Of a DNA stretch of 64,000 nucleotides, positions 1,967 to 62,876 are shown in pieces. The notes beneath the pieces are model-generated. The model was not told where the DNA came from. It was given only the letters and a program-made list of their open reading frames with translations, and did no database searches. Origin of the DNA: an uncultured Candidatus Saccharibacteria bacterium (GTDB lineage Bacteria > Patescibacteriota > Minisyncoccia > Phycocordibacterales > DATDWN01); NCBI GenBank assembly GCA_964426735.1, contig CAYRRP010000001.1, positions 75,923 through 139,922 on the forward strand. Reading direction: 5' to 3'. A program made the translations under genes and the position numbers. Position 1 is the first letter of the stretch, and each line of letters begins with the position of its first letter.

Positions 1967-3233
1967 ATTTGTGAATTATCTTAGCTTTCTTTCCTGTAAG
2001 TAACTCAAATCGTTTGATAGCTAAATCACAAAATCGTGGTTCAAGTTCCACTGCATATACTCGTCGCTTTAACTGTTCCGCACATATCATAGTGCTAGAT
2101 GATCCAGCAAAGGAATCAAGAATGATGTCGCCAGGTTTAGTACACCGTCTAATCGCTTTCTCATGGAGCTTAGGGGGTTTACTCGTCGCATGCTCGTATT
2201 CTTTACCAGACAGTCGTTTTACAAACCACAAGTCCAAATGATCCAATGCTTCAGTTAGAAGATTGTTTCCAGTTGTGATTTCTTTGTTCATTACCTCATT
2301 AAGGTTCTGAATGTTTTTAGTAATGTATGGTTTGCCACGAACTCCGTATGTACATGGCTCGTAGCATTTGTTGAATGCCACAGTCGGTACTGGGTTCTGT
2401 GAGTTTTTGACCCACAAACAGACTCGTTTGTTTTCAATACCAAGTTCACGGTATATATCTTGGACGAATCCAATATATATTTGGTCCGACCAATAGAAGA
2501 TATGAGTATCTGGTTTAGATACAGACAGAGCATTAACCATGCTTTTTCTCAAGAACTCTTTGTATTCGACGTCTGTTCTGTTGTCGTTTACATTTCCACC
2601 ATAATTTTGTTTACCACCAATACCTCCGTTGTAATTGATTTTGATATTGTATACAGGATCGCTGTAAATCATTGACGCTTTCTCTTTGCCGAATAATTTC
2701 TTGAGAGAAGTTTGGTCTAATGAATCACCACAATAAAGCTTGTGACCTCCCATGAAAATCATATCTCCAAGTTTAGTTTTTGGTTTGGTGATTTTCTTGA
2801 GTTCAGCATCAACATCAAACTGATCATCTTCTGCTTCAAGGTTCTCCGACCAGATATCTTGGAGTTCATTCTTATCAAATCCAATATCAGTGAGTGTATC
2901 CATATCAAAGGATTTTAGTCCTTCAAAATCCCACTCACCATCGTTAGTGTTACTTTCGAGAGCGATTTTGTTTCTCTCGTCTTTGGTTAACTTGCGATTA
3001 GGAATGAGAACAGTAACTTCTTGTATACCAAGTTCAGTTAATGCTTTCTTTCTCTGGTTTCCCGAAAGTACTGTCCCATCTGTATCAATTTTGATGACAT
3101 CATGGAAACCACGTTGTTTGATACGATCCTTCAATTTCTCAAATGCTTCTTTAGTAATTTTCCTCGGATTGTTTCTCCAAGCTTTTAGAGACTTAACGCT
3201 CCGTTTTTCGGAACGCCATATTAATTTAGTCAT
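1953..3233 (-). CDS. ParB-like nuclease domain / DNA methyltransferase fusion (N6-adenine or N4-cytosine, beta-class motif order)
   Basis: 426 aa. N-terminal ParB-like domain, then MTase motif IV-like IYSDPVYN followed by motif I-like ILDSFAGSSST. Motif IV precedes motif I, as in the ParB-MTase fusions common in phages. Confidence 0.75.
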   Translation of the reverse strand: MTKLIWRSEKRSVKSLKAWRNNPRKITKEAFEKLKDRIKQRGFHDVIKIDTDGTVLSGNQRKKALTELGIQEVTVLIPNRKLTKDERNKIALESNTNDGEWDFEGLKSFDMDTLTDIGFDKNELQDIWSENLEAEDDQFDVDAELKKITKPKTKLGDMIFMGGHKLYCGDSLDQTSLKKLFGKEKASMIYSDPVYNIKINYNGGIGGKQNYGGNVNDNRTDVEYKEFLRKSMVNALSVSKPDTHIFYWSDQIYIGFVQDIYRELGIENKRVCLWVKNSQNPVPTVAFNKCYEPCTYGVRGKPYITKNIQNLNEVMNKEITTGNNLLTEALDHLDLWFVKRLSGKEYEHATSKPPKLHEKAIRRCTKPGDIILDSFAGSSSTMICAEQLKRRVYAVELEPRFCDLAIKRFELLTGKKAKIIHKYEEE

Positions 3234-7195: not shown

Positions 7196-7678
7196 ATGCA
7201 AATAAAATCACAATTCACTGATAATGGGAATATAGCACAAGTGGTATATGAGGATTGTGACTCTTTTAACCATCTTTTATCAAAAAAAGTGACACAAGTA
7301 TACGCTATCTGTTTCCTAGATGACAAAATGCTAGTTGTTCACAATAAACATGCATGGGGTTTAGTTGGTGGTGGTCTTGAACCAAACGAAACATATGAAG
7401 AATGTTTGAAAAGAGAAATAAAAGAAGAATCAAATATGAGAGTTCTTTCTTTTGCACCTGTAGGTGCCCAAGAAGTTCAATTTGATGGCAAAATAATCTA
7501 CCAACTTCGTTATGCTTGCATCATTCATCCATATGGTGATTTTGTCTCTGACCCAGACGGAGATGTATCTGAAATTAAACTAATTGATTCAAAAGATTAT
7601 AAAGAATATTTTGACTGGGGTGAAATTGGAGAAAGAATCATAGAAAGAGCACTCGAACTTAAGAATAAATTAGCTTAA
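7196..7678 (+). CDS. NUDIX hydrolase (paralog 1)
   Basis: Nudix box GGGLEPNETYEECLKREIKEESN. Shares the C-terminal block PYGDFVSDPDGDxSEIKLID with the ORFs at 7686 and 11897. Confidence 0.8.
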   Translation: MQIKSQFTDNGNIAQVVYEDCDSFNHLLSKKVTQVYAICFLDDKMLVVHNKHAWGLVGGGLEPNETYEECLKREIKEESNMRVLSFAPVGAQEVQFDGKIIYQLRYACIIHPYGDFVSDPDGDVSEIKLIDSKDYKEYFDWGEIGERIIERALELKNKLA

Positions 7679-7685
7679 CAAAATC

Positions 7686-8180
7686 ATGGAAATAAAATCA
7701 CAATTTAAATCACGTAATGGAGAAATGGTTGATTACGTGTTCAGAGAAGGATTTGATCCGATGGGGGGATTAGATGGAAAAGTTCTGCAGGCTGTCCATG
7801 GTTTTTGTTTTTATGGTGACAAATTGGTAGTAGTATACGCAAATGATAAGGGGTATTGGACATTTCCAGGCGGTAGTATAGAACCCGGAGAAACATGGCA
7901 AGAAGCTACTACCCGAGAGATAAAAGAAGAATCAAATATGAAAGTGTTACATCAGGAATTGATTGGATATATCGATGTATATGAAAAAGACCGCACTATT
8001 CGACAAACCAGATCGTTTTGTATAGTTGAACCATACGGTGATTTCGTTTCTGATCCGGATGGAGATATTTCAGAAATAAAGTTGATTGACCCAAAAGACT
8101 ACGGACAGTATGTAAAATGGGGAGAAATTGGTGATCACATTGTGAAGCGAGCGATGGAAATGTTTGGAAAATATAAATAA
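7686..8180 (+). CDS. NUDIX hydrolase (paralog 2)
   Basis: Nudix box PGGSIEPGETWQEATTREIKEESN. About 50% identical to the neighbouring paralogs. Confidence 0.8.
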   Translation: MEIKSQFKSRNGEMVDYVFREGFDPMGGLDGKVLQAVHGFCFYGDKLVVVYANDKGYWTFPGGSIEPGETWQEATTREIKEESNMKVLHQELIGYIDVYEKDRTIRQTRSFCIVEPYGDFVSDPDGDISEIKLIDPKDYGQYVKWGEIGDHIVKRAMEMFGKYK

Positions 8181-11896: not shown

Positions 11897-12385
11897 ATGC
11901 AAATCGTATCAACTATCACTAATAAACAAGGAGAGACTTTTAAATCTATCTATCATGAAGGTGAAAATCCTAATGAAAATTTAGATGGAGTTATTTTGCC
12001 TGGCTCAGGCGGACATTGTTTTTGTGGTGACAAGTTGGTAATTGTAAAATCCGGTAATGATTGGGGTTTTCCAGGGGGTGGAATTGAAAAAGGAGAGACA
12101 TGGCAGGATGCTGTCGCACGGGAGGTAAAAGAAGAAGCAAATATGAAAGTGGTACACCACGAGCTTATTGGCTACCAAGACTTTTTTATGAAAAAACACA
12201 CATTGCGCCATGTGCACTCTCTCTGTATTGTCGAGCCGTATGGAGACTTTGAATCTGATCCAGATAACGATATTACGGAGATAAAACTCATTGATCCGAA
12301 AGATTTTAAAGAATACATCAACTGGGGTGAAGTTGGTGATTATCTAATGAAACAAGCTTTGGAAATGAAAGATTTGATAAAATGA
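11897..12385 (+). CDS. NUDIX hydrolase (paralog 3)
   Basis: Nudix box PGGGIEKGETWQDAVAREVKEEAN. C-terminal block PYGDFESDPDNDITEIKLIDPKDF is shared with the 7196 and 7686 paralogs. Confidence 0.8.
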   Translation: MQIVSTITNKQGETFKSIYHEGENPNENLDGVILPGSGGHCFCGDKLVIVKSGNDWGFPGGGIEKGETWQDAVAREVKEEANMKVVHHELIGYQDFFMKKHTLRHVHSLCIVEPYGDFESDPDNDITEIKLIDPKDFKEYINWGEVGDYLMKQALEMKDLIK

Positions 12386-29337: not shown

Positions 29338-29383
29338 TTAGTGTAACCCTCTATATTGGCAAATTTAGTTGTTGAACTATAGA

Positions 29384-30296: not shown

Positions 30297-30734
30297 ATGA
30301 AAAAAATTTTAATTATAGGTGTCTTAATAGTATGTATTGGAGGTGGAATAGTTGTATTATTCAAACAAAAAAATACACCACCGCAAGCAGTTATAAATCC
30401 TGGTCCAATGCAGTATAAAGATTTGGTATATATAGAAGCACCTTTTTCTGGTACAAAAGTGACGAGTCCATTGGTGGTTTCCGGGCGTGCACGAGGGAAC
30501 TGGTATTTTGAAGCGTCATTTCCAGTAAAACTTTTAGATGGTAATGGAAATCAAATTGTAATTGCTCCTGCACAAGCCCAAGGGGATTGGATGACTACAG
30601 ACTATGTGCCTTTTTCTGTGACGCTGACCTTCCCAACACCAGCAACTGCCACAGGTACCCTTATTTTGCAAAAAGACAATCCTTCAGGAGAACCTCAGTT
30701 TGATGATTATGTCTCAATCCCAGTAACTTTCTAA
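30297..30734 (+). CDS. Gmad2 immunoglobulin-like domain protein, membrane-anchored
   Basis: N-terminal TM helix. SPLVVSGRARGNWYFEASFPVKLLDGNGN...YVPFSVTLTF matches the Gmad2 (PF10648) pattern. Confidence 0.6.
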   Translation: MKKILIIGVLIVCIGGGIVVLFKQKNTPPQAVINPGPMQYKDLVYIEAPFSGTKVTSPLVVSGRARGNWYFEASFPVKLLDGNGNQIVIAPAQAQGDWMTTDYVPFSVTLTFPTPATATGTLILQKDNPSGEPQFDDYVSIPVTF

Positions 30735-30735
30735 C

Positions 30736-30756
30736 TACATAGGGGTACCCTATGTA
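30736..30756. repeat. 21-nt near-palindrome TACATAGGGGTACCCTATGTA (copy 1)
   Basis: Sits immediately after the Gmad2 stop codon. One of three copies in this window. Confidence 0.8.
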
Positions 30757-30771
30757 CCAATAAAACAATCA

Positions 30772-32886: not shown

Positions 32887-32892
32887 GTATAC

Positions 32893-32912
32893 TACATAGG
32901 GGTACCCTATGT
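32893..32912. repeat. 21-nt near-palindrome (copy 3, same orientation as copy 1)
   Basis: ACTACATAGGGGTACCCTATGT lying between two convergent terminators. Confidence 0.8.
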
Positions 32913-32915
32913 GTT

Positions 32916-32958
32916 ATTAAAAAGAAAGCCACCCGAGAAGCAGGGCGCTTTCGGGTGG
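32916..32958 (-). terminator. rho-independent terminator (minus strand)
   Basis: CCACCCGAGAAGCAGGGCGCTTTCGGGTGG with a T-run on the minus strand. Confidence 0.65.
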
Positions 32959-33285: not shown

Positions 33286-33542
33286 GGGGGTCTGTGGTTA
33301 CAATACCACCTATTTTTCATATATGTCAATGATTTTTATTGACAAAATATACAAGAGGTGCTATACTTCTTGGGTAACTAAATCTCATTTTTCTCAGGAG
33401 GTTTCTCTCTGCGCAACGCGCTTTATTGAAAAATTCGAGACCATTTCGCGGTTTGTGTTAAATTAAGCGAAAAAGTTATAAGGGCTCGAATCCTTCAGTA
33501 AATATACAATTCAGTATATTTCTATTAAGTAAAAATATATAT

Positions 33543-34817
33543 ATGTATTCAGAAAGACCTCAATCAAGAGGAAGTAATTTTTCACGACCATCTGCAGGTG
33601 GATATCGAGGAGCGCGACCAAGTTTCGGCTCACGTCCATCTTTTGGTTCTCGTGGAGGTTCACGATTTGCACCACGTCGCCAAGCAGGCAGACGAGGACA
33701 GTCAACTTTCAATGATATTTCTCGTTTCGTAAATAAAGCAACAAAAGCTGAAGAAGTGGAGGTATTCGTACCAAAGCATGCTTTTAGTGATTTTGCGATT
33801 CACGAAGCGCTTAAAGCGGTTATTCTCAAAAAAGGATATACGACTCCAACTCCGATCCAGGATACGTCAATTCCTCACATTTTAGCCGGTCTAGATGTGG
33901 TGGGTATTGCAAACACCGGTACCGGAAAGACAGCTTCATTCCTTATCCCTCTCATTCACAAAGTGATGATTGGTATTATGGCAAAGCGCAATGAGCAGGT
34001 GCTTATCGTCGCTCCGACACGTGAACTCGCAATTCAAATTGATGCTGAATTTAAAAAATTCACTGATGGTTTAAATTTGTATTCAGTGTGTGTAGTTGGT
34101 GGTGCTCCAATCAACAAACAGATCCGCGAACTCCGCTCTCATAATGATTTTATCATCGGGACTCCAGGACGTATCAAAGATTTGATGGAGCAGGGATATA
34201 TTAATCTTTCAAAATTTAACACAATCGTACTCGATGAAGCTGACCGAATGCTTGATATGGGATTTGTGGGTGATATGCGCTTTATGATGGCTAAGATGCC
34301 ACAAGTGCGACACACACTTTTCTTCTCAGCGACTCTGTCAAAAGAAATCGAACAGTTGATTGGGGAGTTTCTCAACAATCCAGTGCGAGTATCTGTAAAG
34401 ACACGAGATACGTCAAAAAATATTGACCAAGACGTGGTACGAACAGGTGGAAAGGATAAGCTCGATGTACTTCACGATATTTTGAATCAGCCAGAATGTG
34501 ACAAAGTCATTATTTTCGGACGAACAAAACATGGAGTAGAAAGACTTTCTGAAATGCTCGCAAAACGAGGTTTTAAAGCAGATGCGATCCATGGTGACAA
34601 AAATCACACTGGACGACAGCGAGCGTTGACCAAGTTTAAAGAAAACCAGGTGCAGATTCTTGTGGCAACAGATGTTGCTGCTCGAGGACTCGACATTCCA
34701 AACGTTTCTCATGTGATCAATTACGATCTTCCGTCAACGTACGAAGACTATGTTCACAGAATCGGACGAACCGGCCGCGCAGGGAAACCAGGAAAGGCCC
34801 TTACGTTTATCGACTAG
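33543..34817 (+). CDS. DEAD-box ATP-dependent RNA helicase with N-terminal RG/S-rich tail
   Basis: Q-motif, GTGKTASFLIP (motif I), DEAD, SAT, HRIGRTGRAG (motif VI). The N-terminal 60 aa is Arg/Gly/Ser-rich. Confidence 0.9.
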   Translation: MYSERPQSRGSNFSRPSAGGYRGARPSFGSRPSFGSRGGSRFAPRRQAGRRGQSTFNDISRFVNKATKAEEVEVFVPKHAFSDFAIHEALKAVILKKGYTTPTPIQDTSIPHILAGLDVVGIANTGTGKTASFLIPLIHKVMIGIMAKRNEQVLIVAPTRELAIQIDAEFKKFTDGLNLYSVCVVGGAPINKQIRELRSHNDFIIGTPGRIKDLMEQGYINLSKFNTIVLDEADRMLDMGFVGDMRFMMAKMPQVRHTLFFSATLSKEIEQLIGEFLNNPVRVSVKTRDTSKNIDQDVVRTGGKDKLDVLHDILNQPECDKVIIFGRTKHGVERLSEMLAKRGFKADAIHGDKNHTGRQRALTKFKENQVQILVATDVAARGLDIPNVSHVINYDLPSTYEDYVHRIGRTGRAGKPGKALTFID

Positions 34818-34825
34818 TAAAACTT

Positions 34826-34930
34826 CCACATTTGGCAAATTTCTTTGTCGAGCGTCGGTAAAATAATTCTCAACGTACGTTAGTACGTTTCCAATTATTT
34901 TCCTAGCTCTTCGCGAACTTTGCTCAAATC
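34826..34930 (+). repeat. ~105-nt intergenic repeat, copy A
   Basis: TTGGCAAATTTCTTTGTCGAGCGTCGGTAAAATAATTCTCAACGTACGTTAGTACGTTTCCAATTATTTTCCTAGCTCTTCGCGAACTTTGCTCAA. Internally palindromic (GAAAATAATT...AATTATTTTC). Confidence 0.75.
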
Positions 34931-34952
34931 TGAAAGTTTTAGGGTTACAACA

Positions 34953-34978
34953 AAAAACCGCCAGGGCGGTTTTTTGCT
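34953..34978 (+). terminator. rho-independent terminator
   Basis: AAAAAACCGCCAGGGCGGTTTTTTGC. Confidence 0.8.
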
Positions 34979-35027
34979 TGGTATAGATTTCCCAGACATC
35001 ATTTATAACTTTTGCTATACTTATTTC

Positions 35028-36206
35028 ATGGAAGGAGCACCAACATCACATTCGGAACGAATATCTGATCGATCTGAAAAGTATCGGGAAATTAGAGAAA
35101 GAATGCGAGAAACTGTCCCTGATGGCGCAATGATATTTGGCGAAGAGGCTCTTGCTGATATAGATATAAATCGAAAAATAGTTAAAGATATAGATGATGA
35201 TCTTGCTGAAGAAACGAATGAAGAGAAAAAAGAAAAATTACTTGACCATAAAATCTTTTTTGAAGGCTGCTGTAAAAAGAGACTCTCGGAGCTTAAAACT
35301 GATATAGAAGATCGGGCCGCTATCGATGCACTACCTTTTTTTGAAACGATATCAACCTCTCCGCATATTGAAAAGTTAGTCAAAGATGAATTGCCGTTGA
35401 TTAAAAAATTGAGCAAGTATGATGCAATTACGCTCTTTGTGTGTACAGTGAATAAAGATATTCCAGATCAATTATTTGAAGAGATGGTGCGGACATATGT
35501 AAACTTTTGGGAGAAAAAGCAGGAAGAATTTCATGAAAAGGCACCGTACATGTTAGCTGAATTTAAAGAAAAAACACTGCAGGCTATAAAAGAAAATAAA
35601 CTACCTATTACTCAAGAGTTATTAGAAGAAAGAATGGATGATACCAGAATCTATTTAGCAGATGCAATGTCTATAGGAGATTGTACGAATGGAGATTATA
35701 GTGTTAAAGAAGGTGTGGTGAGAGTTGCTTATAGAGATGATGAAGAAGCCCAGGAGAAAACTGTCTTTCATGAAATGGTGCACGCACTTTCAGGGCGAAC
35801 AGTAAGACTCAGGAGCGGAGACCTAGATCATCAGCGGAATGGTTTAGTTTTTTGGGTTTATAACAGCAAAGGTAATAAAAGCGGTAAACAATTCAGGTGG
35901 CTAAATGAAGCTGTAACTGAAGAAATTACCATTGAACTTTTGGGAATAGAACCTGAAGATGCTGCATATCCTCGAGAACGAAGGTATCTTCAGGAACTCT
36001 ACAATCAAGGTGTCTCTAAAGAATTGGTTTATGGAGCTTATTTTGAAAATTATGATCCTGATTCTCAAGAAAAAGTTCCTAAATGGAAGGAATTAGTTCG
36101 TCTTATTAAGGATACACATCCAGAAATACCTGATGATAGGGGTGGTGTGGAATACATAAAAAAAGTAGAAGAGGAAATTAAACGAAGGAAAGGTGGTTCT
36201 AACTGA
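35028..36206 (+). CDS. HExxH-motif hypothetical protein (putative metallopeptidase-like)
   Basis: TATACT-N6-ATG leaderless arrangement at 35016-35030. Motif VFHEMVHALSGR; acidic N-terminal third. About 393 aa. Confidence 0.5.
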   Translation: MEGAPTSHSERISDRSEKYREIRERMRETVPDGAMIFGEEALADIDINRKIVKDIDDDLAEETNEEKKEKLLDHKIFFEGCCKKRLSELKTDIEDRAAIDALPFFETISTSPHIEKLVKDELPLIKKLSKYDAITLFVCTVNKDIPDQLFEEMVRTYVNFWEKKQEEFHEKAPYMLAEFKEKTLQAIKENKLPITQELLEERMDDTRIYLADAMSIGDCTNGDYSVKEGVVRVAYRDDEEAQEKTVFHEMVHALSGRTVRLRSGDLDHQRNGLVFWVYNSKGNKSGKQFRWLNEAVTEEITIELLGIEPEDAAYPRERRYLQELYNQGVSKELVYGAYFENYDPDSQEKVPKWKELVRLIKDTHPEIPDDRGGVEYIKKVEEEIKRRKGGSN

Positions 36207-36244
36207 TCCTATTTCAAAAGTACGTTTTGTGGGATAATAGATAT

Positions 36245-36937
36245 ATGCAAAAAATATTAATTGGGTTTTGTTTTGGGTTGCTTTTGGTGCTTGGGGGTGT
36301 TTTGTATTTTCGTGCGGACAAGCTTCAGGTAGCAGAACTCACTACAAATACTATTGAGACAGATTTCTATACTATAAAAGTTACCCAACCGAAAAACGCA
36401 GAAAAGGATTTTCCTGAGATTTTTGCTGTAACAAAAAATGCGATTACAACATTTGAAAAACAATATGGAAACTTGAGCCCTGAAGATATCGAAACTCTTG
36501 GTCTCGGAGGAGATCGTATCTATGACTTACAAATAGATACCACAGTTGCTACTTCTTCGAAGACAGTTTCGTATATTTTGACGTTATACGAATTTACTGG
36601 AGGTGCGCACGGTAATACTGCAGTGAAGACATTTACGTATGATAAAGACAATACATTCATCGATGAAAAGAAATTGTTTGGAGAAAATAACTGGCGACCA
36701 GTGGTGTCCGATATTACCTATGCGTATTTGAAAGAAAAATTAAAAGAAAACACAACCGATGAAGCTCTCAGAGAGGGGACAAAACCTGAGGGAGAAAATC
36801 TATCCACCTGGTATCTCAAAGGTGATGATGTGATCTTTATATTCGGGCAATATCAAATCGGCGCGTATGTGCTTGGTATTCAGGAGGTACCAATATCTCG
36901 TGAAAAATTGAGTGAAGTTTTATTAATTAACAACTAA
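36245..36937 (+). CDS. DUF3298/DUF4163 (RsiV-like) domain protein, membrane-anchored
   Basis: N-terminal TM helix and the LYEFTGGAHGNT signature of DUF3298. Confidence 0.55.
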   Translation: MQKILIGFCFGLLLVLGGVLYFRADKLQVAELTTNTIETDFYTIKVTQPKNAEKDFPEIFAVTKNAITTFEKQYGNLSPEDIETLGLGGDRIYDLQIDTTVATSSKTVSYILTLYEFTGGAHGNTAVKTFTYDKDNTFIDEKKLFGENNWRPVVSDITYAYLKEKLKENTTDEALREGTKPEGENLSTWYLKGDDVIFIFGQYQIGAYVLGIQEVPISREKLSEVLLINN

Positions 36938-36951
36938 AATAAAGAAGTTAC

Positions 36952-37058
36952 GCAATTGAGCAAAGTTCTAGGCAGGCTAGGAAAATAATTGTAGGCGTAC
37001 TCGTTGTACGATGGAAATTATTTTCAGTAGCCTAACAACGAAATTTGCCAAGTGCGGA
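36952..37058 (-). repeat. ~105-nt intergenic repeat, copy C (inverted relative to A and B)
   Basis: The reverse complement aligns to copy A at about 80% identity over about 105 nt (TTGGCAAATTTCgTTGT ... AAAATAATT ... CGTAC ... AGTACG ... CAATTATTTTCCTAGC ... GAACTTTGCTCAA). Confidence 0.75.
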
Positions 37059-37073
37059 AGTTCTAGAAAACAT

Positions 37074-37598
37074 ATGGAGAAAGCTGTATTTGGAGGGGGC
37101 TGTTTCTGGTGTGTGGAAGCTGTGTTTAAAATGCTCAAAGGTGTGAGTGAGGTGTATCCAGGATACGCCGGAGGTACGGTGCCGAATCCAACTTACGAAC
37201 AGGTATGCACGGGAGATACCGGACATGCTGAGGTGGTAGTGGTGGAGTATGATCCTTCAGTTATTAAATATACAGATTTAATGACGGTGTTTTTTGCAAG
37301 CCACAATCCGACCGAGAAAAACAGGTAGGGGGCAGATGTGGGGACTCAGTACCGCTCTGTGATTTTCTATACAACAGAACGGCAAAAAGAAGATGCCTTC
37401 GCGTACATTAAGGAAATAGAGAGTGTGGGTGGAGGTAAGCCAATAGTCACTGAAGTAGAGCCTTTGACCGAAGTATATAAAGCAGAGGATTACCATAAAG
37501 ATTATTTAGCAAATCATCCATCCGCACCGTATTGTCAGATTGTTATTGAACCAAAACTCGACAAAGTAAAAGAGCGATTTGCAAAACTAATAAAATAG
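37074..37598 (+). pseudogene. msrA: peptide methionine sulfoxide reductase MsrA interrupted by an in-frame TAG
   Basis: [12 protein letters not shown] catalytic-Cys motif. ...[25 protein letters not shown] continues in the same frame. The TAG (37326-37328) replaces the conserved Gln (CAG) of the NRQGNDVGTQYRS block. Confidence 0.7.
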
Positions 37599-37690
37599 GC
37601 GAACTTCTTTGTTGGACGTCGGCAATTTGATTGTCATCGTACATTAGTACGCCTCCAATCAAATTCCTTGTCCGCCTCGAATTTCATCCT
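37597..37690 (+). repeat. ~105-nt intergenic repeat, copy B
   Basis: TAGGCGAACTTCTTTGTTGGACGTCGGCAATTTGATTGTCATCGTACATTAGTACGCCTCCAATCAAATTCCTTGTCCGCCTCGAATTTCATC. About 70% identical to copy A without gaps. Confidence 0.7.
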
Positions 37691-37713
37691 ATTTAATTAG
37701 TTTTGCTAGTGAC

Positions 37714-38121
37714 ATGTATAAATTAAATAATATAAAAACTATGGAAATTGACGAAGAAGAGTTGAAAGCAAAGCTTACTCCAGAGGAGTATAAGGTGTTG
37801 CGAGAAAAGGGAACTGAAGCTCCGTTTTCAGGTGCACTGTTGCATGATGAGCGAAGTGGTATGTATACATGCAAAGTGTGTGGGCAAGAACTTTTTGCCT
37901 CAGATGCAAAATTTGATTCAGGTACTGGTTGGCCAAGTTTTGATCAGGCTATACCGGGGAGTGTGGTAGAAACAGAAGATGTGTCGCATGGAATGTCTCG
38001 AACAGAGATTACGTGTTCACAATGTGGATCACACTTGGGGCATGTGTTTAATGATGGACCGACTGTTACAGGAAAGAGGTATTGTCTTAATTCAGTGTGC
38101 TTAGACCTAAAGGTCAAATAA
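37714..38121 (+). CDS. msrB: peptide methionine sulfoxide reductase MsrB
   Basis: Two CxxC zinc knuckles (CKVCGQ, CSQCGS) and the catalytic region [10 protein letters not shown]. Confidence 0.85.
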
Positions 38122-38678
38122 CGGCTCTGGTCTTTTTCACCAATCTCATCGTCTAAAATTAAAAAATACTCCTCACCTTACAAAAAGTAAGGCTCGTCAT
38201 ATTTTTAAATTTTATACGCGACCTTGGCGAAAAATCCACAGAGTGTGGTTATATGGCTTAGGATAAAGATAAAGTTATCCACCTGTGCGTATTTGCGATT
38301 AACCTAACTGTTAGGTAGTATATATGTATACAAAAATACCCACATTGTTGGACTAGATACGGTTGGTATAACAGCTTATCGATAAGTCTTAAGTGAGTTT
38401 TTCGGTCACCAGTTATACCAAATAGGATGGGATTGTATCTAGCCCAATAACAAGGGTATTTTTGCTTTGTTAATTTTACCTTATGGTGCTTAAAAAAGTT
38501 TGCAAAAAACAGTGGAAAACCCCTCTTTCTTCCCACCGCGATACAAAAGCAAACTGATGTAAAATATTGCATCAAATAATGGCTTCGATTAAAGCTTTTT
38601 TAGAACTTTATTTTACTACAACATATTTTTAGGAGAAAACATCTTTCCTTTTTAATTTTTTATGTTGTTTTAGTAAAA

Positions 38679-62429: not shown

Positions 62430-62660
62430 ATGTCACTAAAAACATTTTTTTTAAAGAAGATGCTTTCATCAAAAATGAAAGGTGTTCCACAAGCAGAGCA
62501 AGATAAGATATTTGATATGATTGAAAAAAACCCAGATCTTTTCCAGAAGATTGGTGTTGAAGTACAAGAAAAGATGCAGAAAGAAGGGAAGGATCAAATG
62601 CAGGCTGCGATGGAGGTGATGCAGAAACATAAAGACCAACTCCAAGGTCTCATGAAGTAG
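62430..62660 (+). CDS. small helical hypothetical protein
   Basis: 76-aa Lys/Gln/Met-rich ORF. Low confidence. Confidence 0.3.
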   Translation: MSLKTFFLKKMLSSKMKGVPQAEQDKIFDMIEKNPDLFQKIGVEVQEKMQKEGKDQMQAAMEVMQKHKDQLQGLMK

Positions 62661-62876
62661 GAATTTTAAATTTGGTAAATTTCGTTGTTGGAATTCATTC
62701 AAATTTAAAATCCTTAGTAGCCTATTTCTCGTCGAATTTTTCTTAAATAGTAAACTTTGTAGGATTCAAAAAAGATCAAAAATAATCGAGGTTTGTAGGC
62801 CTCACAAAAAACCACTCTTGAACGGAGTGATTTTTTATATCCGAATGCGCTATCCACACCTATTTTCGTTGACGGT

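Follow-up and report, generated by a model that had tools for sequence, protein, structure and literature searches.

What are the long palindromic spacers around the helicase, msrA and msrB genes of this DNA? The genomes of CPR/Patescibacteria are usually called streamlined, with tiny spacers, and the 64,000-nt stretch analysed here (the window) bears out the initial annotation's description of a compact genome with gaps below 50 nt, its median intergenic gap being 44 nt by crude ORF calls. Against this background the initial annotation had noticed three related intergenic repeats, A, C and B. In this study, we consider it likely that these repeats, together with the further copies F and E and the remnant D, are ~130-nt non-autonomous palindromic mobile elements of Parcubacteria-group bacteria (CPR/Patescibacteria), resembling in their apparent behaviour the RPE, REPIN and ERIC repeats. 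They belong to a large, apparently undescribed family of ~130-base hairpin repeats, a form of "selfish DNA" that occupies the ends of genes and at times the interior of essential genes in tiny-genome Parcubacteria (CPR).

Extent and structure of the copies

The three intergenic repeats are present where they had been reported, but each is longer than described, a paired structure of ~130 nt, and the count of three was incomplete: the window holds four full copies (A, C, B and F), the mini copy E and the 5' remnant D, the latter two and copy F having been overlooked (Table 1). Over the extents first annotated, an identity of 70-80% holds for A and C (73%) but not for A and B (61%) or C and B (58%); the differences of copy B are mostly compensated, as in the replacement of AAAATAATT/AATTATTTT by AATTTGATT/AATCAAATT. 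Each full copy is a single long imperfect hairpin of 128-131 nt and, as had been proposed, either strand folds into one long hairpin, as RNA or as DNA, with z of -5.5 to -10 (-42.7 kcal/mol and z -6.5 for the RNA hairpin of copy A). The element is nevertheless not strand-symmetric, since its sequence is clearly oriented, scoring ~120-130 bits forward and ~50 in reverse. Moreover, the similarity does not come from low-complexity AT runs, since a 21-position apical pattern matches A, B and C where shuffles expect 0.00 matches, and the covariance-model E-values of these copies are ~1e-27 to 1e-32.

Table 1. Copies of the element and the displaced terminator in the window
Feature	Position	Strand	Description
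Remnant D	~29338-29382	+	5' fragment, TTGGCAAATTTAGTTGTTG at 29356; repeat search and pattern match, 1 mismatch
Copy A	34815-34944	+	Full length; covariance model R1 138.8 bits, R2 126 bits
Native intrinsic terminator of helicase gene, AAAAAACCGCCAGGGCGGTTTTTT	34950-34979	+	Outside the repeat
Copy C	36939-37068	-	Full length, inverted; covariance model 127.6 and 121.8 bits, minus strand
Copy B	37579-37708	+	Full length; covariance model 139.2 and 128.5 bits
Copy F	38119-38249	+	Full length, divergent third subfamily; R2 40.2 bits, E 3.6e-7, full model
Copy E	62655-62719	+	Internally deleted mini copy; R1 35.3 bits, R2 36.3 bits

The observation that the repeats sit immediately after stop codons was correct. 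The first triplet of copy A is the helicase stop TAG (34815-34817), the outer stem of copy B contains the final five msrA codons and the TAG stop (37596-37598), and copy C, which occupies the spacer between a PdaC-like gene and msrA, begins 2 nt past the PdaC-like TAA. Copies A and B are of different subtypes, the former with outer blocks GGCAAATTTC/GAACTTTGCTC and stem AAAATAATT, the latter with blocks GGCGAACTTC/GAATTTCATCC, stem AATTTGATT and 19-nt arms that are 95% complementary. Copy F begins at the msrB stop TAA and has its architecture and blocks in common with copies in two other loci (L008:1908 and L021:5118). Copy E, made up of the outer stem, the 5' block TTGGTAAATTTCGTTGT and the 3' end, lies directly 3' of the stop of a gene for 78 aa, and the orthologous gene in L045 is followed by a full-length copy (2932-3062). 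Remnant D is found between the stop of an ABC-F gene and a native bidirectional terminator.

Occupied and empty sites in related genomes

Element DNA has been gained and lost among close relatives. In L030, which is syntenic to the copy A locus, the helicase stop is followed by GTTACAAC and the terminator with the element absent, indicating that copy A was inserted behind the stop and ahead of the native terminator. This terminator stands directly after the stop codon in L030 and after a different palindromic insert in L029, and in the window it has been displaced downstream by copy A; the inserts at the helicase stop belong to different subfamilies in the window and in L029 (independent insertions). 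At the locus of remnant D, the syntenic L030 has the stop, 9 nt and the terminator, with the segment absent. The spacers that hold copies C, B and F are likewise short elsewhere: PdaC-like/msrA is just 3-11 nt in L026, L029 and L030, msrA/msrB is 5 nt in L026 and L027, and msrB/xseA is 3-19 nt in L016, L026 and L027. All three copies are absent from L026, whose order is PdaC-5 nt-msrA-5 nt-msrB-19 nt-xseA, and copy F has an ortholog in L029 (6379-6509). The reverse situation also occurs: the rluA-like/FKBP spacer has a copy in L016 and L030 and none in the window or L027, and the xseA/xseB spacer, 4 nt in the window, has a copy in L029. A single repeat family accounts for most of the unusually long spacers here, which are 5-19 nt in a relative and 130-560 nt in the window.

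Copies decay by internal deletion, as seen in E, D and similar remnants. Subfamilies cross genomes, and distinct ones coexist in one genome: the closest relative of copy B (91%) is in another MAG (L019), over the aligned core copy C has 83-84% identity with copies in L003 and L016, which occupy non-orthologous sites in a related MAG, and copies within a genome are 60-80% identical. Genes flanking copies include tuf, ftsZ, ftsA, infB, nusA, recA and argS. In different genomes copies recur after tuf (host proteins 92% identical), argS (72% and 32%), ftsW (31%) and rplK (57%). It is possible that this recurrence in distant genomes reflects a host-level function and not insertion hot spots.

Size and covariation of the family

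A covariance-model scan, which the initial annotation had suggested, recovered 82 distinct copies from 565 kb of sequence of the Parcubacteria group, and the repeat is plentiful in related genomes and metagenomes, so that the grounds on which the initial annotation would have counted its observation as refuted do not apply. Nearly all copies are 127-134 nt long, the exceptions being a few with apical insertions (to ~207 nt), mini copy E with its 65 nt and a single match truncated at an end. Hosts are labelled Zambryskibacteria, Parcubacteria or Minisyncoccota. The exact apical pattern has 21 matches in genome contigs, several per genome, of which 20 are labelled CPR-type and one Nitrospiraceae; the outer-block pattern has 44 metagenome matches. 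Judged from unbiased syntenic loci, the density of the family is probably tens of copies per megabase. The Rfam comparison, also suggested before, gave no family match to the element, with a tRNA as the sole match in the window at the gathering threshold and chance matches far under the cut-offs around the copies. Phages, plasmids and E. coli gave no match either, including by blastn of copy A against 5,426 complete E. coli genomes (E<=1e-3).

From its base inward, the element consists of an outer stem of 8-10 bp that is paired and variable in sequence, its outermost ends being the least conserved part; two conserved inverted blocks in sub-terminal position, TTGGCAAATTTC and GAACTTTGCTCAA, which include a bulge that is fixed and a pyrimidine-pyrimidine mismatch; a first internal loop, in which TTTGT faces CCTC; a middle stem that varies; another internal loop, in which CTCAyC faces rCTCC; and an apical stem-loop. 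A fixed interval of 70-73 nt separates the conserved blocks TGGCAAATTTC and GAACTTTGCTCA, and the interiors are very diverse but paired. In an alignment of 29 copies, 91% of pair cells are paired and double changes are present in 36 of 46 pairs, values reached by none of 500 shuffles, and slid controls gave 30-45% pairing. G.T-type and A.C-type mismatches are about equal (43 and 45) and one-sided changes are rare, a pattern that fits Watson-Crick, DNA-like maintenance. Functional RNAs, too, typically combine a fixed length with conserved nucleotides in their loops.

Insertions within genes

Four of the 82 copies are intragenic, and those that are translated belong to only one subfamily, read only on the reverse strand. 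In TsaD an insert of ~40-46 residues occupies site 1 in L065 and L052 and another position, site 2, in L042, so that each site is seen empty where the other is filled, and the Dus protein of L073 has the same type of insert, making three independent in-frame insertions (two sites in tsaD, one in dus). The encoded peptide, LSKVRGKTEQ...FDKEICQ, is conserved, and the Pfam domain match of the TsaD and Dus proteins that contain it is broken into two stretches. Together with the two orientations and the empty sites, the in-frame copies agree with the earlier proposal of a DNA-level MITE-like or REP-like repeat and not a strand-specific leader.

Site 2 of the L042 tsaD gene (L042:5954), apparently the youngest insertion, has on either side the 7-nt sequence AAAATAG, a perfect direct repeat both copies of which align to the same K-I-(D/E) residues of empty-site homologues. 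Such a repeat, if general, would indicate a DDE-type enzyme over a single-strand mechanism.

Orientation and junctions

Most sites are gene boundaries, with the upstream stop typically in the first few bases of the element. The upstream stop lies inside the first 1-37 nt in 36 copies, and the 3' end lies within 8 nt of a stop in only 8; a role at the mRNA level could explain why stop-adjacent copies are biased towards the sense orientation. Relative to the flanking genes, the two orientations stand at 45 to 28 overall and 29 to 16 in co-directional gene pairs. With the coding-strand effect removed, the G-rich strand carries the forward strand of the element in 37 of 47 copies, and counted by locus the ratio is 22 to 3 (22/25 loci, p ~1e-4). 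In the window, four of the five model-detected copies, and remnant D too, have this orientation. The orientation of the element therefore tracks the G-rich strand and not simply transcription. As a general rule the G-rich strand is the leading strand, and by this rule we infer that copies are biased relative to the replication strand, as IS200/IS605 elements are.

A consistent target duplication is absent among 80 copies, flanks matching at 6-7 of 7 positions in 11% of cases and in 9% of mismatched-flank controls, and no clear duplication was seen at three junctions where occupied and empty sites could be compared. These junctions are directly 3' of CTAG, TTAA or CTAA, and the insertion sites have no fixed motif at a fixed column. 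No transposase or HUH gene was found in 598 ORFs from ~565 kb around the copies (8-15 kb per locus); a crude screen of the nearby ORFs for a HUH...Y motif, over the same distances, was negative, and no transposase bounded by element blocks was seen in the loci covered. The strand bias, the lack of target duplication and the stop-codon junctions lead to a concrete hypothesis of single-stranded-DNA mobility. The element would probably move as a single-strand DNA hairpin, pairing would be retained since copies that cannot fold cannot propagate, and the transcribed hairpin would probably change mRNA 3' or 5' ends as a side effect.

Alternative explanations

A classical MITE, cut and pasted as double-stranded DNA by a DDE transposase that recognises terminal inverted repeats and duplicates its target, is a possibility to which we give a low probability. 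It would account for the form of the element, an imperfect inverted repeat throughout with conserved sub-terminal blocks, and for AAAATAG at what is apparently the youngest insertion. The flank repeats at control level and the three junctions, though, do not show the expected duplication, the outermost ends are the least conserved part, no block-bounded transposase was seen in the loci covered, and the mechanism itself does not predict a G-rich-strand bias.

It is tentatively possible that the element is not just selfish DNA but a protein-recognised module co-opted by CPR bacteria, either a REPIN-like population with a domesticated HUH enzyme or an mRNA-end module. The constant geometry of this module would be that of the two internal loops that are conserved, the fixed bulge and the interior of 70-73 nt. 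If the former were true, a single-copy domesticated HUH enzyme at the replication fork would keep the element population; in the latter case the module would be kept after the highly expressed tuf, argS, ftsW and rplK, and the stop codon embedded at the foot of the hairpin would link the termination of translation with folding.

Rather doubtful is a structured RNA selected by the host, as a cis-acting 3' UTR or a separate small RNA, whose spread would be recruitment and not selfish transposition. In cis it might be a stabiliser, an RNase III or RNase E processing site, or a termination-coupled switch. The strong covariation, fixed length and conserved internal-loop nucleotides speak for it, as do the sense orientation of stop-adjacent copies (36 vs 8) and the copies kept after tuf, argS, ftsW and rplK in different genomes. 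Several copies have a stop codon before them and an intrinsic terminator of its own kind after them and are therefore transcribed, and an effect on the fate of mRNA is known for ERIC and Correia repeats (PMC10969869). However, the orientation relative to genes is only 45 vs 28 (29 vs 16 in co-directional pairs), about the ratio expected from an 80% replication-strand bias and 67% leading-strand genes, and in 77 of 80 copies the strand that mRNA usually contains folds less well than its complement, by 8.7 kcal/mol. Copies are also translated within tsaD and dus and missing from the orthologous spacers of close relatives, and the element has neither an Rfam match nor a conserved flanking promoter.

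Very improbable is a site in duplex DNA at which a host protein of nucleoid, gyrase or IHF type would bind or act architecturally, as proposed for REP/BIME, the palindrome serving dimer binding. Conserved central and sub-terminal blocks, intergenic dispersal and an orientation tied to the replication strand would suit such a site, but the helices vary while staying complementary (36/46 pairs compensated), as expected of a folded single strand, the conserved positions are asymmetric loops and mismatches that do not exist in duplex DNA, and the copies are dispensable among close relatives.

Integron attC sites carry R''(RYYYAAC)...R'(GTTRRRY) at the stem base and have a uniform orientation, an adjacent intI and cassette genes. 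Hairpins of attC-like size right after stops, plausibly folded as single strands, with four copies in 3.4 kb flanking single genes (helicase-A, msrA-B, msrB-F), recall a gene-cassette array, but this reading is hardly credible and is contradicted by the inverted copy C, the housekeeping genes flanked (tuf, ftsZ, ftsA, infB, nusA, recA, argS), the copies within ORFs, the lack of an integrase beside any copy in the examined loci, and a sole GTTRRRY-like heptamer, GTTGGAC, that is on the 5' and not the 3' arm, without the R''/R' arrangement and with pairing running ~20 bp past it.

Relation to known repeat families

The reading that we prefer, a non-autonomous palindromic mobile element, has its closest parallels in well-known repeats. 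RPEs make in-frame insertions into genes (PMC10969869). Like them, the element is palindromic (~100-150 bp), dispersed between the genes of a reduced-genome host and decays by deletion, and a transposase is known for neither (PMC10969869); it also enters unrelated housekeeping genes in frame, adding a conserved peptide and leaving the ORF intact. By contrast, the host here is Parcubacteria-group CPR and not Rickettsia, the comparison being one of properties and not sequence, and copies are mostly intergenic and anchored at stop codons, with only 4/82 intragenic.

In REPINs the ends are conserved, the spacer has a fixed length and compensatory changes occur (PMC3116915). The element shares with REPIN/RAYT systems two inverted conserved regions and a spacer whose length and pairing, not sequence, are conserved (PMC3116915), as well as frequent compensatory changes (36/46 pairs) and subfamilies that coexist per genome. 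Unlike in those systems, there is no RAYT or TnpA gene near any copy (8-15 kb per locus), the blocks are not short GC-rich REP-type palindromes with 5' GTAG, the element measures ~130 nt and contains a pair of conserved internal loops, and it is not strictly extragenic, with copies inside tsaD and dus. IS200/IS605 elements use the lagging-strand template, where they enter 3' of a short target sequence (PMC5027513), and with both groups the element has in common the lack of consistent target duplication and a replication-associated strand bias (PMC5027513). As regards a PATE-like target, three junctions are just 3' of TAA/TAG, while among the copies no motif stands out at a fixed column.

ERIC (127 bp) is also an imperfect palindrome of near-equal length. 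It is found in transcribed intergenic DNA near gene 3' ends in either orientation, with internally deleted variants, rare intragenic copies, cross-species similarity and no known mobilising enzyme (PMC10969869), as is the element. The two differ in host phylum and have no sequence similarity (blastn, 5,426 E. coli genomes). We know of no description of a replication-strand bias or of stop-codon embedding for ERIC. Correia, RUP and other DDE-type MITEs are likewise short, non-autonomous inverted repeats that form transcript hairpins and can supply or alter expression signals. They have conserved terminal inverted repeats, a regular duplication (e.g. TA) and a recognisable parent IS, none of which the element has in the loci covered. 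It is nevertheless short (<300 bp), non-coding, multi-copy and insertion-polymorphic, as MITEs are.

The rare behaviour of RPEs, in-frame insertion into essential genes, thus recurs in a second, unrelated reduced-genome lineage, and the tolerance of palindromic DNA in proteins is now testable by comparison. The covariance model can be used for annotation and strain typing. Moreover, two short-read assemblies of the same organism, independent of each other, are broken within copy A or just past it, which makes the family a practical cause of fragmentation in MAGs.

Results

Copies of the hairpin repeat in the window

The three related intergenic segments described in the initial annotation (A, B and C) were correctly placed, all of them lying within 34600-37900. 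Repeat finding paired A with C in two inverted repeats (57 and 52 nt) and also linked B to both. The similarity described over about 95-105 nt stood, but the copies are longer than that (Table). An identity of 70-80% had been given, which holds for A and C (73% over the segments as first delimited); B is further from both than had been said, at 61% (A-B) and 58% (C-B). Most of the differences in B are compensated on the opposite arm, and with these three sequences alone double changes are already found in 16 of the 46 predicted pairs. In agreement with the proposal that the copies are internally palindromic and could fold on either strand, a single long hairpin was predicted for each (RNA z -6.2 to -10, DNA z -5.5 to -8.7). 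An apical pattern of 21 positions matched exactly A, B and C in the window, where shuffles expect 0.00 matches; the repeats are thus genuine and not a low-complexity artefact.

Unfiltered runs of two covariance models, R1 built from three copies and R2 from 29, recovered three further elements in the window, F, E and D. The divergent subfamily to which F belongs also includes L008:1908 and L021:5118. Deletion derivatives exist: the mini copy E corresponds, in deleted form, to a full copy lying 3' of the orthologous 78-aa gene in locus L045. Relative to the syntenic locus L030, the remnant D appears as 45 additional nt separating a stop codon from the native terminator.

Copies of the hairpin repeat family in the window
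Copy	Position	Strand	Description
A	34815-34944	+	imperfect palindrome, 128-131 nt per copy
C	36939-37068	-	imperfect palindrome, 128-131 nt per copy
B	37579-37708	+	imperfect palindrome, 128-131 nt per copy
F	38119-38249	+	fourth full-length copy; starts at the msrB stop codon
E	62655-62719	+	65-nt mini copy; outer stem and 5' block retained
D	at 29356		5' remnant

Two short-read assemblies made independently from the same organism (L001, L002) stop 118 nt past the helicase gene, and the next contig (L024) begins within copy A (window about 34910-34935). Logan contigs share an overlap of ~26 nt within A, which marks an assembly break and no demonstrated indel, and insertion polymorphism in the source population was rejected. 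Given that assemblies end at copy A, the repeat family appears to fragment assemblies.

Distribution of the family

The family is widespread and, in the collections searched, confined to these CPR lineages. An exact scan for the apical pattern, with one genome per species, gave 21 loci, of which 20 carry the labels Zambryskibacteria, Parcubacteria, Patescibacteria or 'Saccharibacteria' and one lies on a MAG contig labelled 'Nitrospiraceae'; six of these loci came from one MAG and eight from another. R1 found full-length matches in all complete apical-pattern loci and additional copies besides. A second, independent metagenome scan with the outer blocks alone (TGGCAAATTTC-N62-82-GAACTTTGCTCA) gave 44 loci with highly diverse interiors, the same architecture and a block spacing of always 70-73 nt. 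In total, 82 distinct copies were collected in 565 kb. The window organism is closely related to MAGs labelled Zambryskiibacteriota or Minisyncoccota (msrB 90-96% amino acid identity).

Rfam had no relevant match at either the gathering or the E<=10 threshold. Carriage by phages or plasmids was rejected, as there were 0 pattern matches in IMG/VR and no blastn match to phages or plasmids, and homology to ERIC was rejected in the absence of any E. coli match to the element.

Conserved structure and covariation

The hairpin is conserved, with covariation. In the 29-copy alignment standard pairs make up 91% of pair cells, against 75% in shuffles and 30-45% with slid partners, compensatory double changes occur in 36 of 46 pairs, and none of 500 shuffles reached the observed pairing values. 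One-sided (G.U-type) changes are rare and mismatches of the G.T type (43) and the A.C type (45) are equally frequent, so that no strand preference could be read from them and the upkeep of pairing is Watson-Crick and strand-neutral. The total length of the element is also conserved, as are several unpaired features: the sub-terminal helix (GGCAAATTTC/GAACTTTGCTC) has a bulge and a pyrimidine-pyrimidine mismatch, and there are two internal loops, TTTGT opposite CCTC and CTCAyC opposite rCTCC. The first set of copies was selected on the apical region and the second on the outer blocks, so in each set the part not used for selection is sampled without bias. Apical region and outer blocks alike are conserved within subfamilies, and the helices in between covary. 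In 77 of 80 copies the more stable RNA fold is that of the purine-rich reverse strand, by 8.7 kcal/mol.

Several readings of the element as a signal or gene were rejected: an internal promoter, as a consensus scan found fewer promoter-like sites than in shuffles; an internal terminator, as several copies are followed by a separate terminator; a sigma-54-like reading of TGGCA-N-TTTGT, which misses the -12 GC; a Shine-Dalgarno or anti-Shine-Dalgarno reading of the CCTCC/GGAGG loop, with its inconsistent distance to start codons; and a conserved small ORF, as about half of the copies contain an open frame by chance and the frame is conserved only in the subfamily inside genes.

Empty and occupied sites among relatives

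Five syntenic relatives were recovered, and among such close relatives copies are gained and lost. In L026 the gene order is PdaC-5 nt-msrA-5 nt-msrB-19 nt-xseA, so the sites of C, B and F are empty there, and in L016 msrB and xseA are 3 nt apart. A copy lies between the rluA-like and FKBP genes in L016 and L030 and is absent from the window (about 38 nt) and L027; L029 has one between xseA and xseB, genes that are 4 nt apart in the window, and its xseA runs into the element and ends at an internal TAG. L030 carries a copy within the helicase leader, directly after a TAA.

Stop-codon junctions are used repeatedly. The helicase stop in L030 is followed by GTTACAAC and a terminator with no element at that point, and copy A in the window is placed exactly between the stop and GTTACAAC. 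At the identical point in L029 the insert is a member of another subfamily; the junction was therefore used twice independently. Between msrA and msrB, four relatives have four different palindromic fillers, and L026, L027 and L028 have none. The fillers compared were window 37599-37740, L016 493-672, L029 5899-6000 and L030 5858-6000; one bears inverted arrays of GACTT/AAGTC, and the spacer is just 5 nt in three other relatives. It seems that palindromic fillers of several families colonise this junction.

Copy C shares 83-84% identity (aligned core) with copies at non-orthologous sites in a related MAG, the flanking coding DNA sharing 72-82%. The nearest relative of B (91%) sits in a different MAG, and the copies of one genome share just ~60-80% with each other, which indicates old subfamilies common to genomes rather than a recent burst.

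In-frame insertions in genes

Clustering of the ORFs around the copies revealed element matches inside long ORFs, in frame. The TsaD proteins of L065 and L052 carry an insert of ~40-46 residues after ...IYSNFI.K..G that L042 is without, and TsaD of L042 carries a homologous insert at another site, after ...AEKLIKK, that L065 and L052 are without; a Dus protein of L073 has an insert of the same kind. The inserted peptide, LSKV(R/Q)GKTEQ...FDKEICQ, is the reverse-strand translation of the element, FDKEICQ corresponding to the reverse complement of TTGGCAAATTTCTTTGTCAAA. Pfam confirmed TsaD and Dus, with the domain match of each broken into two stretches.

Position and orientation

Of the 73 copies for which a gene could be called on the 5' side, 45 have their 5' end towards a stop codon; in 36 of them this stop falls in nt 1-37 of the model, most commonly ending 6 nt into it. 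Only eight copies have their 3' end <=8 nt from a stop. Distances to start codons are unreliable, the ORF caller picking the first possible start. The neighbours are ordinary housekeeping genes (tuf, fusA, infB, nusA, ftsA, ftsZ, ftsW, smc, recA, argS, rplK), and the positions after tuf, argS, ftsW and rplK recur in distant genomes.

There is a strand bias in orientation. After the coding-strand component of GC skew (k = 0.088) had been separated, the residual skew of the strand on which the element reads forward was positive (r = 0.049; 33 of 42 loci). The element is forward on the G-rich strand in 37 of 47 copies, or 22 against 3 when counted by locus (p about 1e-4). In the window, the + strand is G-rich even inside minus-strand genes (r = 0.093); A, B, F, E and the remnant D are forward on it, and C alone is reversed. 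An 80% bias to one replication strand, together with a 67% share of coding DNA on that strand, predicts ~61% co-orientation of copy and neighbouring gene, and 62% (45 of 73) was observed. The replication strand may thus be the primary determinant of orientation.

Target duplication and putative mobilising enzyme

A systematic search for flanking direct repeats gave the same score distribution as mismatched flanks, and a target-site duplication was rejected. A perfect 7-nt flanking repeat was present only at the tsaD insertion of L042; both copies of this repeat correspond to the same residues in the empty-site homologues. At three junctions where an occupied site was compared with an empty one, the junction is immediately 3' of CTAG, TTAA or CTAA and shows no clear duplication, and no parse as a TA- or YTAR-type duplication was consistent across the helicase, xseA and 5'-UTR junctions. 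Protein clusters neighbouring the copies were housekeeping families only, with no recurrent transposase-like family; no blocks bounding an ORF were found near copies, block spacings of 0.3-4 kb being noise and short remnants. No HUH...Y motif was found in the 598 ORFs near copies. All of these are weak negatives, since the searches covered the surroundings of the copies.

Discussion

Elements of this kind are well known (RPE, REPIN, ERIC, MITE), and the present family is a further member; full-text searches of the literature turned up no account of elements like these from Patescibacteria or Parcubacteria. In-frame insertion in genes is a hallmark of Rickettsia palindromic elements (PMC10969869), which the copies in TsaD and Dus match. 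Two features add to its value: RPE-like coding insertions, of which this is a second and independent case, and a testable tie to the replication strand.

We propose that the hairpin is kept because a trans-acting enzyme would recognise it, with single-stranded DNA at the fork as the putative substrate, for which IS200/IS605 (PMC5027513) and REP/RAYT (PMC3116915) are precedents. Transcribed copies may in addition act on mRNA ends, as ERIC and Correia elements are reported to do (PMC10969869).

The chief alternative is a structured RNA selected by the host. Copies are dispensable between relatives, their orientation is mixed, the element is translated within genes, and mRNAs usually carry the less stable strand; a structured RNA is therefore disfavoured as the primary explanation, with a secondary role possible. 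A classical DDE-type MITE is possible, although its defining duplication is missing and no parent IS was found around the copies. An integron attC site was rejected on box arrangement, orientation and gene content, and a duplex-binding site fails specific tests.

Other features of the region

The msrA gene (37074-37598), bordered by copy C on one side and B on the other, has an in-frame TAG at 37326-37328 in place of the CAG of relatives, which encodes the Q of the NRQG motif; the TAG recurs in independent Logan assemblies, and two PMSR fragments are called there. As TAG is an ordinary stop in 18 window genes, either this one is a nonsense mutation that makes msrA a pseudogene or it is read through. 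The helicase and the PdaC-like gene flank a 392-aa ORF (35028-36206) that contains an HEMVH (HExxH) motif and has no Pfam match; missing from the syntenic L029 and L030, this ORF is an insertion adjoining copy A. The msrB-xseA spacer measures 558 nt in the window and 3-19 nt in three relatives. It contains a second, unrelated long hairpin (38331-38464; 30-nt arms, 83% complementary) and, beyond it (38490-38575), a stretch conserved with L029 (GTGGAAAACCC...CTTCCCACCGCGATACAAAAG), neither with an Rfam match.

A perfect 19-nt palindrome, ACATAGGGGTACCCTATGT, occurs twice (30734-30765 and 32891-32922), each time shortly past a stop codon, and may represent a further small repeat family, a terminator or an operator. 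A promoter-like TTGACA...TATACT and, behind it, a leader of ~190 nt (together 33335-33540) precede the DEAD-box helicase and are strongly conserved in L029 and L030; the leader is possibly a regulatory 5' UTR of the cold-shock-helicase type. Three paralogous coding stretches (7367-8134 and 12060-12339; 66-76% identity over 77-115 nt) point to a small family of gene duplicates that has no relation to the hairpin repeat.
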